Below are positions 9,597 to 49,055 of a stretch of DNA of 64,000 nt, in pieces. Within the stretch, counting starts at the first letter, position 1. Each line of letters begins with the position of its first letter. Source of the stretch: Nitrospirota bacterium (GTDB lineage: Bacteria > Nitrospirota > Thermodesulfovibrionia > Thermodesulfovibrionales > Dissulfurispiraceae); contig CAWBMP010000004.1 of the NCBI GenBank assembly GCA_963790025.1, forward strand, positions 704,001 to 768,000, written 5' to 3'. Position numbers and translations under genes: made by a program. Under the pieces are notes generated by a model. The model ran no database searches. It was given only the letters and a program-made list of their open reading frames with translations, and was not told where the DNA came from.

Positions 9597-9699
9597 AGGC
9601 AAAGGTAGAGGTAAAGAAAAGATGCAGAAAAGGTACAGGCAAAAACATATCAGAGGTTCAGGGCGAGTCTTTCCTCGACCTTTACCTCTACCTTTGCCT
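9597..9699. repeat. Hexamer-periodic 20-bp inverted repeat
   Basis: AGGCAAAGGTAGAGGTAAAG (9597-9616) and CTTTACCTCTACCTTTGCCT (9680-9699). Confidence 0.85.
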
Positions 9700-21317: not shown

Positions 21318-22109
21318 TCAAGGCCCATTTTCTGCATGCCTCATGATCCATACAGTACCGAACTCACCGTCCTGGTAGGCACGTCCAAGCCCTAGCCGCA
21401 GGATTTCGAGTACAGCCAGGAAGGTGACAATAATCTGGACGCGTGACTCGACTCCGCTGAAAAGCGAGTCAAAGCGTGTAGTATGTTCCGTCTCCATTCT
21501 TTCCAGGATGAATGCAATTTTATCCTTTACAGTCAATGTTTCCCGCGATATGCTCATGGCCTCAGGCGGGGCCTTTTTCAGAATTTTTTGCAGCGCGCCC
21601 ATGAGGTCGAACATATTTACTTCGAAAAGTAAGGGTTCATGTTCGACGCTCATATCGTCAGTATTTAAAGGCTCCCGTGAAAAGGAGTTTATCCAGATGC
21701 TTTCCCTCTCCCTCAAGGTAGCGGATGCCTCCTTGAATGCCTGGTACTCAAGAAGCTTCTGCACAAGACCGGCCCTCGGGTCTTCACTCTCTTCCAACTC
21801 GATCGTCTCATCAGGCGGCAGCAGCATCCTTGATTTGATATAGATGAGTGTTGCAGCCATGACCAGGAATTCAGAAGCAATCTCCAGGTTAAGTTCTTTC
21901 ATGATTTCGAGGTATTCGAGGTATTGACCGGTTATCCGGGCTATAGGGATATCATAAATGTCAATCTTGTCATGCTTGATCAGATGAAGGAGAAGATCGA
22001 GAGGCCCCTCAAAAACGGCCACTTTCACACTATATTTATTTGCCGGCGCCGCTGTTTCCAGCGTACCCTGATTATCGGCAGATGCGTTGTCAGATGCTTG
22101 ATCGATCAT
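21318..22109 (-). CDS. scpA: Segregation and condensation protein A
   Basis: FEGPLDLLLHLI, IYIKSRMLLP, TFLAVLE. Confidence 0.96.
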   Translation of the reverse strand: MIDQASDNASADNQGTLETAAPANKYSVKVAVFEGPLDLLLHLIKHDKIDIYDIPIARITGQYLEYLEIMKELNLEIASEFLVMAATLIYIKSRMLLPPDETIELEESEDPRAGLVQKLLEYQAFKEASATLRERESIWINSFSREPLNTDDMSVEHEPLLFEVNMFDLMGALQKILKKAPPEAMSISRETLTVKDKIAFILERMETEHTTRFDSLFSGVESRVQIIVTFLAVLEILRLGLGRAYQDGEFGTVWIMRHAENGP

Positions 22110-22125
22110 GTACTTGCGCTAAGAA

Positions 22126-22300
22126 GAAAGAACGAGGCATGTCCATTTTTCAGCAAAATAGCACGGGTCTACTGTAGCAGGGCCGAGTAACGCCGAGGCC
22201 CAACCCTGTGAGTCCGACAACCTGTAGCCACAGTTTAAAGACCCGGTCTGGAACGAAAGTAGTTTTATTTTGTTGAAAAATGGACATGCCTCGTTCTTTC
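22126..22300 (+). ncRNA. Unknown structured element, copy 1 (175 nt, 35-bp closing stem)
   Basis: 22126-22160 pairs with 22266-22300 (34 Watson-Crick, 1 G-T); core shared with copy 2. Confidence 0.55.
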
Positions 22301-22324
22301 ATAAATTGTGCAACTTTTATGCAT

Positions 22325-22494
22325 AGGATATGGTATATATTCATTTTCGATAAAATAAAACTACTTTAGTGCAAAACATAAATTTTAGACTGTAGACATA
22401 ATCACAGGAATCACAGCGCTGGGGCTCGGCGTTACTCACCCCTGTTACAGTAGACCCGTGTTATTTTACCGAAAATAAATATATACCATATCCT
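22325..22494 (-). ncRNA. Unknown structured element, copy 2 (170 nt, 34-bp closing stem)
   Basis: 22461-22494 pairs with 22325-22358 (32 Watson-Crick, 2 G-T on minus strand); core shared with copy 1. Confidence 0.55.
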
Positions 22495-22508
22495 TACAAT
22501 CACTCAGC

Positions 22509-23417
22509 CTACGGGATAACCTTGTTCAAAGGGTATTCAACGATGCCGGAAGCTCCTGCACTCTTGAGCTTGGGGATAATATCCCGCACCGTCTTCTCAT
22601 CGATTACAACATCGATGGCGTACCAGCCGGTATCTGAAAGGCATGAAACCGTAGGTGAGTGCATGGCCGCAAGCAGGCTCAATACCTTTTTAAAGGACTT
22701 TTCAGGCACGTTCATTTTCAGTCCGACCTTTTCTTCGGCTGCGAGAGCCCCTTGTAAAAGGAGGGCTATGTTCTCCATTTTGTGCCGCTTCCATTTGTCC
22801 TGCCAGGCCTTTTTATTGGCAATAAATCTGGTAGTCGATTCGATCATGGTTTCGACAATTCTAAGATTGTTCGCTCTAAGTGAAGTGCCGGTCTCCGTAA
22901 GCTCTACGATGGCGTCAGCCAACTGGGGAGGTTTCACCTCGGTCGCGCCCCACGAAAAGTCCACTACCGCACTGATTCCCCTTGATTTCAGATACCGCTT
23001 TGTATAGCCGACCAATTCGGTGGCAACACGCTTTCCATTTAGGTCTTTTATGGTCTTTATCTTTGAATCCACCGGAACGGCAATTACCCAGCGCACAGGT
23101 CTGAACCCTTCTTTTCCGTACAACAGTTCGGACACCTCAACAACATCGGCATTCTGCTCGAGCACCCAGTCGCGTCCCGTCAGACCACCGTCCAGGTGGC
23201 CGTCCGCGACGTAGCGCGCCATCTCCTGCGCCCTTATGAGCATGGAGGTTATCTCAAGGTCGTCGAAAACAGGATAATAAGAGCGGGAGGAAACGGTGAT
23301 ATGGTACCCAGCCTTTCTGAAAAGTTTGAGTGTCGCTTCCTGGAGGCTGCCCTTGGGGAGCCCCAGATTCAAAAGATGCTTCTTGTTATTCGTTTTCATT
23401 TTCTTCATTTTCCCCAT
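22509..23417 (-). CDS. hisG: ATP phosphoribosyltransferase, long form
   Basis: LPKGSL, GATEVKP, ETGTSL, C-terminal regulatory domain; exact start uncertain. Confidence 0.96.
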
Positions 23418-27726: not shown

Positions 27727-27879
27727 CACAGAGGCACAGAGACGCAGAGGATTTTTAAATGCTGAAAAGATTAAAACAAACGAAGGGTTGTCATTCCCGC
27801 CAGCGGCTGGAATTTATTTGGTTTTTGCAAGGTGTAATACTATGATTTTGTCTTTTCTCTGTGTCTCTGTGCCTCTGTG
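27727..27879. repeat. Octamer (CACAGAGR)3 inverted repeat enclosing a TGTCATTCCC half-element
   Basis: 27727-27749 vs 27857-27879, 22 of 23 complementary. Confidence 0.85.
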
Positions 27880-38784: not shown

Positions 38785-40338
38785 TCACAATGGAATATTC
38801 CCGTGTTTCCGCTGCGGCAGGCTTGTCCGCTTGTTTTCCAGAAACTGCAGGCTTCGGATCAGCCGGTGCCTTGTATCACGCGGATTGATGACGTCGTCGA
38901 TAAATCCTCTCTTGGCTGCCATGAAGGGATTGGCGTACGTTATCCGGTATTCTTCCGCTTTCCGGGCAAGCATCTCCGAAGGGTCTTCCGCCTCTTCAAT
39001 CTCCTTGCGGTAAATAATCTGTGCTGCGCCTTTGGGGCCGAGCACGGCGATTTCCGCTGCAGGCCAGGCAAAATTCAGATCACAGCCAATGTGTTTGGAA
39101 TTCATGACCACGTATGCGCCGCCGTATGCCTTGCGAATAATGACCGTTATCCGGGGCACCGTAGCTTCTGAAAAGGCATAAAGCAGCTTTGCCCCGCGCC
39201 GGATAATGCCTCCGTGCTCCTGCTCCGGCCCGGGCATGAAACCCGGTACATCCTCAAGGCAAACGAGCGGGATATTGAAAGCATCGCAGAAACGGACAAA
39301 TCGGGCGGCCTTTTCAGAAGCCTGGACGTCAAGGACACCGGCAAGCACTGCAGGCTGGTTGGCAATGAGGCCTACGGTCTCACCTCCGAGACGGCCGAAA
39401 CCCACAATTATATTCCTGGCAAAATGGGGATGAATCTCCAGAAATTCCGCTCCGTCCAGAATACTGCTGATAAGAATCTTCATGTCATACGTCTGGTTCG
39501 CATTGGCCGGAACCAAATAATCCAGGGCAGGGTCCGAGCGTTCAGCCGGATCCCTCAGATCAAGAATCGGCGCCTGTTGACGATTGTTTGAAGGCAGATA
39601 ACTGACGAGCCGCCTCAGCTCCCTTAGGCAGAGAATATCATTGGGGAAAACGAAATGGGCCACACCGCTTTTTTTGCTGTGCACCATGGCCCCGCCCAAT
39701 TCTTCCGCGGTAATGTCCTGATGGATGACGGTCTTGACCACATTGGGTCCAGTGACAAACATATATGAGGTGTTTTCGACCATGAAGGTGAAATCCGTTA
39801 TGGCAGGGCTGTAGACGGCGCCGCCTGCGCAGGGCCCCATAATGCATGAGATCTGCGGCACCACCCCGCTTGCCTGAACATTTCGATGGAAAATTTCTCC
39901 ATATGCTGCCAGCGATTCAACCCCCTCCTGGATCCGGGCTCCGCCGGAATCGTTAAGCCCGATAATGGGCGCGCCGACCCGCACAGCATGGTCCATTAAC
40001 TTGCAGATCTTCTGAGCATGGGCCTCGCCGAGTGATCCGCCAATGATGGTGAAATCCTGGCTGAATACGAAGACCTCGCGACCATCGATGGTGCCGTGCC
40101 CGGTAATCACCCCGTCTCCGGGAAACTCACCGGCGCCGGTATTCTGGCCCGGCCTTCCGGCCATCAGAAGATTAAATTCTTCAAATGAACCATCATCAAG
40201 GAGCAGTTCGATACGCTCCCGCGCGGTGAGCTTACCCTTGCGGTGCTGGGCCTCGATTCTCTTAATTCCTCCGCCGAGAAAGGCCTCCTCTTTCATGGCT
40301 TCAAGTTTTGTCAGATTATTCTGTTCATACCGCTGCAC
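38785..40338 (-). CDS. pccB: Propionyl-CoA carboxylase beta (carboxyltransferase)
   Basis: [30 protein letters not shown]. Confidence 0.92.
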
Positions 40339-46827: not shown

Positions 46828-47106
46828 GTGATACGGTCATTTAGACATAAGGGACTTGAGGTTTTTTTTCGCGATGGGGAAAAGAATGGGATTGACCCGA
46901 GCCACTCTGCAAGACTTGCGAGGATACTCGACCGTCTGGATGCTTCAATGTCTGCTCAGGACATGAACTTGCCAGGCTTGAAATTGCATGAGTTGAAAGG
47001 CCGGGAGAAAGGAGCTTGGTCAGTCACTGTGAGCGGCAACTGGATGGTGGTTTTTAGATTTGAAGGCAATGATGCGGTCCAAGTTGATTACCTGGATTAT
47101 CATTAG
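46828..47106 (+). CDS. higB: HigB-family toxin
   Basis: MIRSFRHKGL, LHELKG, VSGNW, DYLDYH. Confidence 0.93.
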   Translation: MIRSFRHKGLEVFFRDGEKNGIDPSHSARLARILDRLDASMSAQDMNLPGLKLHELKGREKGAWSVTVSGNWMVVFRFEGNDAVQVDYLDYH

Positions 47107-47121
47107 GGAAAAGAGTTTGAC

Positions 47122-47412
47122 ATGATTGGAAAAAGAAAACCGGTTCATCCCGGAGAAGTATTATTGGAAGATGTTATGAAACCGCTTGGTCTAACGGTTA
47201 CAGAGGCTGCCGCACGATTGGGTGTGACCAGAAAAACACTTTCGACCTTACTGAACGGGAAGGCATCGTTAAGCCCTGAAATGGCGATGAGAATAGCGAG
47301 TGCGACAAACACGTCACCTGAGAGCTGGCTATATATGCAGGCAAAATTGGATCTCTGGAACGTGGCAAGAAAGCCCCCGAGAGTGCGAGAGCTAAAGTCA
47401 GTAGCTGTATAA
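47122..47412 (+). CDS. higA: HigA-family antitoxin
   Basis: HPGEVL, HTH, LSPEMAMRI, ESWLYMQ. Confidence 0.94.
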   Translation: MIGKRKPVHPGEVLLEDVMKPLGLTVTEAAARLGVTRKTLSTLLNGKASLSPEMAMRIASATNTSPESWLYMQAKLDLWNVARKPPRVRELKSVAV

Positions 47413-47436: not shown

Positions 47437-48379
47437 GAAACGGGGTCAGGTCTAGAATGTTTACCTTTTTGCATGCCCTCGAACAACCCGGCTTATATAT
47501 GTAAAATGCAAATTGAGATGATTTGCGATTGCCCGCTGAGTATATCCAAATTCGTAGACAGCAGTAATTATTTTGCTGTCCCTCTGACTTTTATCCATTA
47601 ATATGTTTTTGCTGAATATGCTATCCAACCCGGGTCTGTTGACATACCGTTGCGTTTTGGATATTTCGGCAATATTCTTATGTTTATTGAGATGATGATT
47701 CAGGCTATCAACGAATTCTTCTTTTCCGAGAACTACCTGGCCCTTAACAGCATTCCAAATACTTTCTTGTTCGATGCCTGATTTCACAAACTCACGGTAT
47801 TTTCTTTCTGCCTCACTCCTTTCCTCGCTGAATTGCCCTAGTATCCAGTCAGTGGTAAGACACGGATGAGGCGTTTTCTTTCCTGCGGTTTCCCCGTAGC
47901 TGGACCATTTCCAATCTTCAGGCTGTTCAACTATGTGCGCACGTACCGGATTCAGCACAACATATCGGCACACTTCAAGAAGATGACTGTCTTTCTGGAT
48001 CACAATAGCCTTATATCTACCTTGCAACAGATGACCTGATCGGTTGCGCTTTTTGTTGTAAGCCTGGCTGTAGACACTGTTTAATTGCCTCATCCCTATG
48101 GACAGATTTCCATCCGGCGTTTCAATCATCAAATGATAATGGTTATCCATCAGACAGTAGGCATGGCATAGCCAATTGTACCGTCTATTGATATCGACAA
48201 GAATCCCAAGGAATGTTTCACGGTCAGCGTCATCCCTGAAAATTGACTTCTTCTCGTTTCCACGAGAAGTAACATGATATACAGCGCCAGGATATTGTAT
48301 CCGCAACGGTCGAGCCATAACAGCCAATTTATCAGATTTATCATGAACATGTAAAACATTATAGACCTGACCCCATTTC
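47437..48379. mobile_element. RAYT unit bounded by 28-29-bp inverted repeats
   Basis: GAAACGGGGTCAGGTCTAGAATGTTTAC (47437-47464) vs reverse complement of 48351-48379 GAAATGGGGTCAGGTCTATAATGTTTTAC. Confidence 0.8.
47461..48318 (-). CDS. REP-associated tyrosine (Y1 HUH) transposase with C-terminal HTH
   Basis: MARPLR..YHVTSRGN, LMDNHYH (HUH), YVVLNPVRA, WSSY. Confidence 0.92.
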   Translation of the reverse strand: MARPLRIQYPGAVYHVTSRGNEKKSIFRDDADRETFLGILVDINRRYNWLCHAYCLMDNHYHLMIETPDGNLSIGMRQLNSVYSQAYNKKRNRSGHLLQGRYKAIVIQKDSHLLEVCRYVVLNPVRAHIVEQPEDWKWSSYGETAGKKTPHPCLTTDWILGQFSEERSEAERKYREFVKSGIEQESIWNAVKGQVVLGKEEFVDSLNHHLNKHKNIAEISKTQRYVNRPGLDSIFSKNILMDKSQRDSKIITAVYEFGYTQRAIANHLNLHFTYISRVVRGHAKR

Positions 48380-48438: not shown

Positions 48439-48657
48439 ATGAGAACAGTATTATCGATTAGCCTTCCGGAAAACATGTCAGAGGAACTTGAAATGGTTGC
48501 AAAGAGTACCGGCCGTAACAAGAGCGACATTGTTAAAGAATCGCTTGGTCTATTCCTGTGGGAAATGAAACTCAAGGCGGTACAGAAGAAACTTGGCCCA
48601 AAGGCAAAAAAGCTTGGCATGGTCAGCGAAGATGATGTATTTAAGAAAATATCATGA
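48439..48657 (+). CDS. CopG/RHH antitoxin
   Basis: LSISLPE...KSDIVKESL; ATGA overlap with the PIN gene. Confidence 0.88.
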   Translation: MRTVLSISLPENMSEELEMVAKSTGRNKSDIVKESLGLFLWEMKLKAVQKKLGPKAKKLGMVSEDDVFKKIS

Positions 48658-49055
48658 TTGTCGTCTTTGATACCAACGTTCTGATTGCGGCAATTATCAC
48701 TGAAGGGCTTTGCTCGAAACTATTGCACAGGGCACGCGGCGGAGAGTTCTCCCTCATCCTATGCCCATTCATTCTGAAAGAACTTCGGAGTATTCTCTCA
48801 ACGAAATTTCGCCTCTCGCGGGAAGACGTGGCTTTAGCTATGGAACCTATAAACGAGGCGATCTATGAAGTTATTGAGCACGGCATCAATATCTCCGGAA
48901 TCTGTCGGGATGCTGATGATGACAACATTATTGCGTGTGCGGTGGCAGCAAAGGCTGATTATCTTGTGACCGGCGACTCTGATCTGCTGGAGATAAAAAG
49001 CTATCACGATATTAAGATTGTAACTCCAAGAGATTTCGAAGTCTTATTTGTGTGA
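48654..49055 (+). CDS. PIN-domain (VapC-like) toxin
   Basis: DTNVL, CRDADD, VTGDSDLL. Confidence 0.92.
   Translation: MIVVFDTNVLIAAIITEGLCSKLLHRARGGEFSLILCPFILKELRSILSTKFRLSREDVALAMEPINEAIYEVIEHGINISGICRDADDDNIIACAVAAKADYLVTGDSDLLEIKSYHDIKIVTPRDFEVLFV

Follow-up and report, generated by a model that had tools for sequence, protein, structure and literature searches.

Paired hairpin-forming repeats in a Nitrospirota hisG–scpA spacer and their relatives in the Thermodesulfovibrionales

The hisG–scpA spacer and its two elements

The spacer between hisG and scpA in a Nitrospirota bacterium (contig CAWBMP010000004.1; the whole 64,000-nt stretch that was analysed, positions 704,001 to 768,000, is called the window throughout) contains two folded, non-coding elements in convergent orientation, copy 1 at 22126-22300 (+) and copy 2 at 22325-22494 (-). 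A preliminary description of this DNA had drawn attention to them, and re-deriving their arms, fold and shared core placed both elements where it had located them. We think that they probably form a doublet of lineage-specific, hairpin-forming interspersed repeats akin to MITEs (miniature transposable elements with inverted repeats), to the REPINs built from repetitive extragenic palindromic (REP) sequences and to Correia elements. The flanking genes are scpA (segregation/condensation protein A; 21318-22109, -), which starts, as annotated, 16 nt from copy 1, and hisG (ATP phosphoribosyltransferase; 22509-23417, -), whose stop lies 14 nt from copy 2.

Copy 1 measures 175 nt, belongs to the window-like subfamily that we call D and scores 149.5 bits with the covariance model R1 introduced below. 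Its arms of 35 nt, which are 97% complementary, occupy 22126-22160 and 22266-22300 on the plus strand; the outer 20 nt or so of the 5′ arm are subfamily-specific and the inner part, TTTTTCAGCAAAATA, is homologous family-wide. Between the arms, on the same strand, lie the conserved 5′ box CACGGGTCTACTGTA with its CTAC motif (22162-22176), an inner hairpin that we call P2 (22180-22201), consisting of a 5-bp stem, a tandem G·A, a G-C pair and the hexaloop UAACGC, and the conserved 3′ box AAAGTAGTTTTATTTT (22256-22271), which includes GTAG and extends into the 3′ arm. An AT-rich spacer of 24 nt (22301-22324) separates the 3′ ends of the two copies and is the counterpart of the AT-rich spacers of 13-27 nt found in doublets elsewhere. 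Copy 2, on the minus strand, measures 170 nt (R1 score 137.4 bits) and has AT-rich arms at 22325-22358 and 22461-22494 that form a closing stem of 34 bp. Its 5′ box lies at 22446-22460, its P2 hairpin (GGGGU...GCCCC, with a U·G closing pair) at 22421-22442 and its 3′ box at 22352-22367, all likewise on the minus strand.

The mean column identity of the two copies is 83% across 176 columns. They do share a core, as had been proposed, the blocks CACGGGTCTACTGTA, GAGTAACGCCGAG and AAAGTAGTTTTATTTT being identical in both copies and occurring nowhere else in the 64 kb. The outer arms had been described as self-complementary within each copy yet unrelated between the copies; the former is correct, but the arms are not strictly unrelated, with 8 identical positions and 6 transitions among 17. 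The differences between them are mostly transitions, and each difference, of whatever kind, is mirrored on the opposite arm. Within the window the outer arm of either copy is found solely as its own inverted pair. Arms intermediate between those of the window copies occur in other genomes, at two of the loci that we designate by L numbers (L019, ATATGGCATAT; L032, ACATGGCATGT), and the copy 2 arm resembles those of L019 and of the D subfamily.

The repeat family and its fold

The set of related loci comes from one genome scan with a single exact 18-base pattern of the inner hairpin and is biased towards close relatives. There were 32 hits, representing 28 real loci in seven metagenome-assembled genomes (MAGs), all of them labelled Nitrospirota, Nitrospirae or Dissulfurispiraceae (order Thermodesulfovibrionales); the hits L007, L013, L024 and L025 were discarded as chance pattern matches, coming from unrelated phyla and having no further similarity. 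The loci furnished 26 full-length copies (from 25 loci) and, at three loci, rearranged ones. The covariance model R1, built from 28 sequences and run over 419,198 bases, added seven full copies, all inside the same loci, and in the window it found no copies besides the two known. Matches on the sense strand scored 80-183 bits, and the palindromic arms alone gave 31-64 bits on the other strand. In the best-stocked assembly the pattern detects nine loci, and at least 14 copies are present once the matches of the model are added. The check proposed in the preliminary description, namely to build a covariance model and search relatives with it, thus returned further homologs, and the 28 loci in seven MAGs together with the seven extra copies establish the element as a dispersed repeat. 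LeuA, PssA, Psd and IlvC of the window are 86-90% identical to those in two of the MAGs, which places the window in the same group.

No known RNA family had been recognised in the elements from their letters, and a search of the 64-kb window with Rfam 15 at gathering thresholds likewise gave zero matches. A permissive Rfam scan of 801 bases yielded seven sub-threshold matches to microRNA-precursor hairpins (best 32.6 bits against a threshold of 110), which we judged spurious; the models in question describe long hairpins, and every match scored far under its threshold. L018 gave the same outcome with Rfam, no family being matched, and blastn against plasmid and phage collections found no match to the pair. 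Neither did literature searches on Thermodesulfovibrio MITEs and on Nitrospirota structured RNAs bring up a description of such repeats; as far as Rfam 15 and the literature searches show, the family is apparently undescribed.

The unit is about 165-190 nt long, with a closing stem of 32-36 bp. The inner half of this stem (...TGTTTTTCGG/CCGAAAAACA...) is conserved, its U-run always being on the 5′ side, and the outer half varies with the subfamily. The asymmetric core comprises, in order, the 5′ box GCACGGGTCTACTG, the invariant hairpin GGGGC-GA-G-UAACGC-C-GA-GCCCC, a GAGAATG box, a variable central hairpin and the 3′ box AAAGTAGTTT. According to their outer arms the copies fall into subfamilies A (GGAGCGGCAGGGGCAGG), B (CAGGAGAAGGGGAGCAC), C (ACTGCAATTCAGACAG) and D (window copy 1 with L032, L003 and L029:4545), besides several singles, and subfamilies have near-identical arms at many loci in several species. 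The copy 1 outer arm recurs with few changes in the other three D members, that is in three other species and beside unrelated genes, so the outer arm accompanies the core from locus to locus instead of being copied from local flanks. This disposes of the earlier suggestion that the elements carry inverted copies of their own flanks. Solo arm palindromes that could have been pre-existing targets were not found in the loci.

Folded as RNA, copy 1 reaches −85.4 kcal/mol (z −10.3; the same z of −10.3 is obtained with DNA parameters) and copy 2 −66.0 kcal/mol (z −8.9), and for both none of 200 shuffled sequences was as stable. For the family alignment the RNAalifold structure has 39 pairs, and compensatory double changes occur in 31 of these. 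Standard pairs occupy 96.4% of the cells, compared with 75.4 ± 0.8% when the 3′ partners are shuffled (0 of 500 shuffles reach the observed value) and 41-50% when the partners are slid by 1-3 columns; the covariation score is correspondingly 0.555, versus 0.171 for shuffled and 0.074-0.107 for slid partners. Double-sided changes are seen at 30 of 32 closing-stem pairs. The covariation of the inner hairpin between the window copies (GGGCC/GGCCC vs GGGGU/GCCCC) was present as described, and we read P2 as 5 bp followed by a tandem G·A, a G-C pair and the hexaloop because the divergent copy L026:1509 has Watson-Crick pairs in place of the tandem G·A. The pairing ACUGU/ACAGU, also proposed beforehand, exists only in the window-like subfamily and is missing from the abundant A and B subfamilies. 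Taken over the family, the fold is under selection, as had been surmised from the two window copies.

It had further been observed that all three non-Watson-Crick pairs in the closing stems of the window are G·U on the strand reading the core, and this is the case (position 28 of copy 1, positions 18 and 26 of copy 2). Across the closing stems of 33 copies, Watson-Crick pairs number 1109, G·U pairs 27 and A·C pairs 10, with 20 mismatches of other kinds, and in 30 of 33 copies the core-reading strand is the more stable one, the mean difference being 5.8 kcal/mol; these strand and pair counts overstate independence, the copies being related and the sense strand G-rich, but their direction is consistent across subfamilies. 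After removal by hand of inherited events and of doubtful end positions, we infer roughly 17 independent G·U events versus 4 A·C in the closing stems. The proposed strand specificity is thus borne out: selection sees a single strand of fixed polarity, which may be RNA or single-stranded DNA (ssDNA).

The strand bias is compatible with the elements being genes for structured small RNAs, made independently or excised from longer transcripts by a cut in the long stem, such as RNase III might make. In that case the functional surface would consist of the invariant loop and the 5′ and 3′ boxes, and specificity would come from the variable outer stem or central hairpin. We regard this explanation as possible, though doubtful. 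It can call upon the sense-strand excess of G·U and the stability of that strand, upon a P2 loop that is invariant in 28 of 28 aligned sequences while its stem varies (one double change, three wobble pairs, no A·C), and upon a variable hairpin 3′ of GAGAATG which, in our reading of the alignment, keeps pairing with differing sequences among subfamilies. Against this, the strand richer in G+U tends to fold better from composition alone, and no core helix besides P2 and the closing stem is consistently supported in the aligned copies, the extra helix CUACU/AGUAG being compensated in two copies and broken in several. In window positions 21950-22650 neither a promoter-like nor a terminator-like site is predicted, and L030 shows no terminator, which also speaks against small RNA genes. 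Subfamily A, on the other hand, possesses an outward promoter-like site composed of a −35-like TAAACA in the arm and a −10-like TATAAT in the leader just outside it (TAAACA-N18-TATAAT in L030). The same arrangement is present in 10 aligned junctions, where it faces the B copy or, in the case of L010, lies directly upstream of a gene start, and its direction into the B copies of doublets would suit transcription of a small RNA.

Dispersal, rearrangement and exchange with sister hairpins

All copies are intergenic, usually 10-150 nt from gene ends, and their 66 immediate neighbours encode, according to Pfam, unrelated housekeeping proteins. Between co-directional genes a hand tally gave 3 copies in sense and 4 in antisense, hence no fixed orientation; this random orientation relative to the neighbours argues against small RNA genes, and so do the copy number, chimeras, remnants and flanking duplications detailed below, which are repeat-like. 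The complete A/B doublets L001, L006, L027 and L030 are arranged head-to-head with a conserved AT-rich spacer, and several seemingly single copies retain a remnant of the partner's arm. L011 and L023 carry deletions at microhomology, L014 is truncated at its 3′ end, and in L022 the inner hairpin is the site of an inversion. Of a copy that is intact at L026:1509, the orthologous site in L016 preserves only one arm and about 45 nt. Direct repeats flank two members of the larger superfamily, one of 7 bp at L002:5891 (the only case among 21 family copies examined) and a perfect one of 10 bp, TTACCCGGAC, around the sister element H at L001:8143-8337. Sister copies in one genome are mosaic, with identical arms and 5′ cores and about 20% divergent centres that match other copies.

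As a side observation, what looks by eye like a tRNA gene adjoins the A copy directly at L026:5761-5893, and the orthologous spacer L016:680-950 contains the same sequence together with a remnant of a C-type arm.

In the frame given by arm, spacer and partner, the cores of the B copy of L008 and of both window copies are reversed relative to those of L001, L006, L027, L030, L018 and L031. Either the core has flipped between its own arms or it has entered in either orientation. The former could mean that the units are invertible cassettes, the 33-bp inverted arms being recombination sites and the core flipping as a switch; the conserved inner arm motif at which chimeras join is in keeping with this, and repeated exchange could keep perfect arms alike. 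We nevertheless hold such a switch to be improbable. Neither the scanned neighbours nor the scanned window ORFs include an invertase, scanning L030 and the window pair revealed no convincing promoter inside the core, and frequent flipping should erase the G·U strand bias. Rare homologous recombination between the arms explains the orientations equally well.

The same genomes carry other hairpin families, here called E, F, G and H. Family E is rod-like with a core of about 123 nt (L018:5766-5920, L031:5767-5921, L002:8605-8799, L015:2299-2459), and this core is found in A-type arms (L018, L031) as well as in unrelated arms of 36 bp (L002:8605). A G core lies within a C-type outer arm at L032:1836. 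The H elements (L001:8143-8337, L026:6097-6330) share an inner-stem motif with subfamily B, and at L026:6097-6330 an H core sits within B arms, forming a chimera joined at that motif. A mini-hairpin of about 38 nt (GCACCCCAAAAAG...CTTTTTGGGGACCCC) has in addition been inserted in four larger hairpin elements of three families (L027:6087-6301, L021:9819-10035, L015:2299-2459 and L019:2028-2187), in two cases precisely within the invariant UAACGC hexaloop, where the two inserts face opposite ways. The mini-hairpin may be a tiny mobile element that targets loops.

In sum, the units multiply and disperse in genomes, recombine, decay by deletion and swap arms and cores with sister families. What is unusual in this family is the combination of a conserved asymmetric core, variable arms, modular shuffling and nested insertions directed to the apex. 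One could go further and see here a modular hairpin-in-hairpin system, in which conserved asymmetric cores (this one, E, G and H) and palindromic arm 'slots' are separate modules, exchanged or invaded at hairpin apexes and at the inner-stem motif TGTTTTTCG. It would account for the same core inside unrelated perfect stems and for cores of various kinds inside the same stems; from the core-reading strand would come a structured, processed RNA or an ssDNA intermediate, and the UAACGC hairpin could serve as the handle for a trans-acting protein. We consider this extended version unlikely; if true, it would amount to a new structure-targeting mobile or recombination system and not to an ordinary MITE.

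Some further repeats were noted in passing. The arm start of the E element in L002 coincides exactly with the stop codon of a gene. Family F hairpins, with arms GACGGTTTCGTAAAAAG, are present twice in one assembly (L005:1660-1783 and L019:2028-2187) and once in another (L028:9772-9899). The window itself has, upstream of acnA, an inverted repeat whose 17-bp arms enclose a 119-nt loop (27727-27879), another with 20-bp arms made of short tandem units (9597-9699; similar ones at L002:3847, L009:9052 and L030:10928), and one with 14-bp arms inside a carboxyltransferase ORF (39164-39321), which may be due to chance.

Candidate enzymes and comparison with known repeats

One of the identities first suggested for the pair was an orphan retron-like non-coding RNA with a1/a2-type arms. 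Such an RNA would have an msr/msd region and would template multicopy single-stranded DNA by means of a reverse transcriptase (RT) encoded elsewhere. The long terminal inverted arms (closing stems of 34-35 bp) would fit, although this feature is not retron-specific, and the size of the element falls in the range of retron non-coding RNAs. The presence of at least 14 copies in one genome tells against it, however, and no RT exists among the 66 immediate neighbours (Pfam) or, in a PADLOC scan reaching out to about 6 kb, among 215 further ORFs (110 aa or longer), the PADLOC matches labelled RT being a PolA-like polymerase and a protease-domain match. The window is also devoid of an RT among the ORFs scanned (17 against NCBIfam, 35 against Pfam), as the preliminary description had remarked. 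We rate a retron origin as extremely improbable.

Apart from RTs, the only transposase near any copy is that of an unrelated insertion sequence (IS) of 1.36 kb that abuts a copy in L004. This IS (L001:3050-4500, L004:6223-8950) encodes a transposase with an HTH_29 domain and has one intact copy per locus; its fragments in L004 abut an A copy and its ends bear no relation to the hairpin arms. The search for a parent IS with matching ends took in about 12 kb per locus and found none, the arm words being confined to the hairpin elements. The gene between the elements in L006 and two unannotated neighbours were considered as associated enzymes and set aside, since by eye they resemble membrane or coiled-coil proteins and not nucleic-acid enzymes.

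Within the window, 47464-48318 (-) encodes a 285-aa protein that exceeds the curated NCBIfam cut-off for REP-associated tyrosine transposases (RAYTs; 91.2 bits against 80) and matches the Pfam domain Y1_Tnp. The gene lies about 25 kb from the pair and is bracketed by a 13-bp inverted repeat (47442-47454 / 48362-48374), of which neither the window nor the loci contain another occurrence. Its surroundings comprise, as a side observation, a HigB-like toxin and a helix-turn-helix protein (46828-47412, +) on one side and ribbon-helix-helix and PIN-domain proteins (48439-49055, +) on the other, so that the RAYT gene and these type II toxin-antitoxin-like pairs form a small accessory island among central-metabolism genes.

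The RAYT raises the possibility of a REPIN-like origin of the repeats, whereby two inverted halves, each consisting of a GTAG box and an arm, would fold as ssDNA and be copied by a RAYT such as this one. The CTAC and GTAG boxes are indeed situated directly inside the two arms, the hairpin is conserved and imperfect with mismatches, and 20 of 21 copies lack a target duplication, as is expected of HUH enzymes such as those of IS200/IS605 and REPINs. Compensatory changes across the hairpin are known from REPINs too, according to PMC3116915 and PMC3337134. These papers depict REPINs as conserving the REP ends around a free middle, however, whereas the core of our elements is asymmetric and conserved, and duplications of 7-10 bp at two relatives do not agree with this mode of copying. 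We rejected the window RAYT as the linked enzyme, given its private 13-bp repeat, its flanks without similarity to the hairpin elements and the lack of a homologue in the 28 loci. The gene shows that the lineage has hairpin-processing HUH enzymes, not that the RAYT moves the hairpin repeats, and on balance a REPIN-like origin has a low probability in our view.

Several observations weigh against a doublet of mobile repeats. Among the scanned neighbours no copy has a transposase of its own, an HUH enzyme or a recombinase next to it, and the RAYT gene, as just mentioned, has flanks unlike the elements. The most conserved part is the core and not the ends, and the outermost bases of the arms differ from one subfamily to another; one would not expect this if a single transposase recognised the ends. 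The copies without flanking duplication include both of those in the window, and no insertion polymorphism, that is a filled versus a truly empty site, was seen. A further point comes from the one clean orthologous site, the htpG-ilvC spacer of two species (L018/L031), where the B copy is identical at 172 of 176 positions (98%) and the neighbouring E element with spacer at 184 of 187, compared with only 70-77% identity at third codon positions of the flanking genes. This favours a small RNA gene and is easier to reconcile with function or concerted evolution than with neutral junk. Purifying selection for a function at this site was our first reading, and we have downgraded it: the mosaic copies suggest gene conversion, which is sufficient to explain the observed conservation.

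On the whole, the elements resemble small mobile DNA more closely than they do a retron or any RNA gene already known. As interspersed repeats, the units would spread as non-autonomous mobile DNA, mobilised in trans by a non-adjacent enzyme, and a folded single strand of fixed polarity would be important to their persistence. Two candidates for this strand are ssDNA formed in the course of mobilisation and a hairpin in read-through RNA; in either case its folding would explain the compensated stem changes and the G·U pairs on the core-reading strand. The outward promoter-like site supplied by the subfamily A arm and leader would be a side effect.

The family is a clear example of an interspersed bacterial repeat where a conserved, asymmetric and strand-specific folded core takes the place of conserved ends, where arms and cores are shuffled between families and where the loops of larger hairpins become insertion sites for small ones. 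Its hosts are a group of sulfur-cycling Nitrospirota bacteria, and the Thermodesulfovibrionales are, to our knowledge, known almost only from MAGs. Should the fold act as RNA, the elements would constitute a multi-copy class of structured RNA; should it act as ssDNA, they would point to a mobilisation enzyme that recognises structure. The covariance model can be used for masking the elements, which explain oversized intergenic spacers and possibly assembly breaks.

Of the known systems, retron non-coding RNAs have in common with our elements a long closing stem of terminal inverted repeats and a folded element of about 170 nt, but the hairpin repeats are multi-copy, are never beside an RT in the scanned loci and match no Rfam model. 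The likeness to MITEs extends to size, terminal inverted repeats, lack of coding capacity, multiple copies, division into subfamilies and the flanking duplications of 7-10 bp in two superfamily members; they differ in that the loci contain no parent IS with matching ends, 20 of 21 copies are without duplication and the terminal bases vary across subfamilies. REPINs are also hairpin-forming doublets that persist in a lineage and show compensatory changes (PMC3116915, PMC3337134), and a RAYT-type gene is present in the window. They are, however, symmetric pairs of short conserved REP sequences with a free middle, in contrast to the asymmetric, conserved middle and variable ends found here, and the RAYT gene of the window is not flanked by hairpin elements. 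With the Correia elements of Neisseria (CREE/NEMIS) there is no sequence relation, the Nitrospirota arms are longer (32-36 bp) and variable between subfamilies around a constant core, and no TA duplication was seen. CREE/NEMIS have been connected with promoter creation, binding of integration host factor (IHF) and binding or cleavage by RNase III, as stated in PMC2649163. Both kinds of element may give rise to promoters that point outward from their ends, and both fold into long hairpins as RNA; both are also small, non-coding, intergenic and present in many copies, with inverted-repeat ends enclosing a conserved core.

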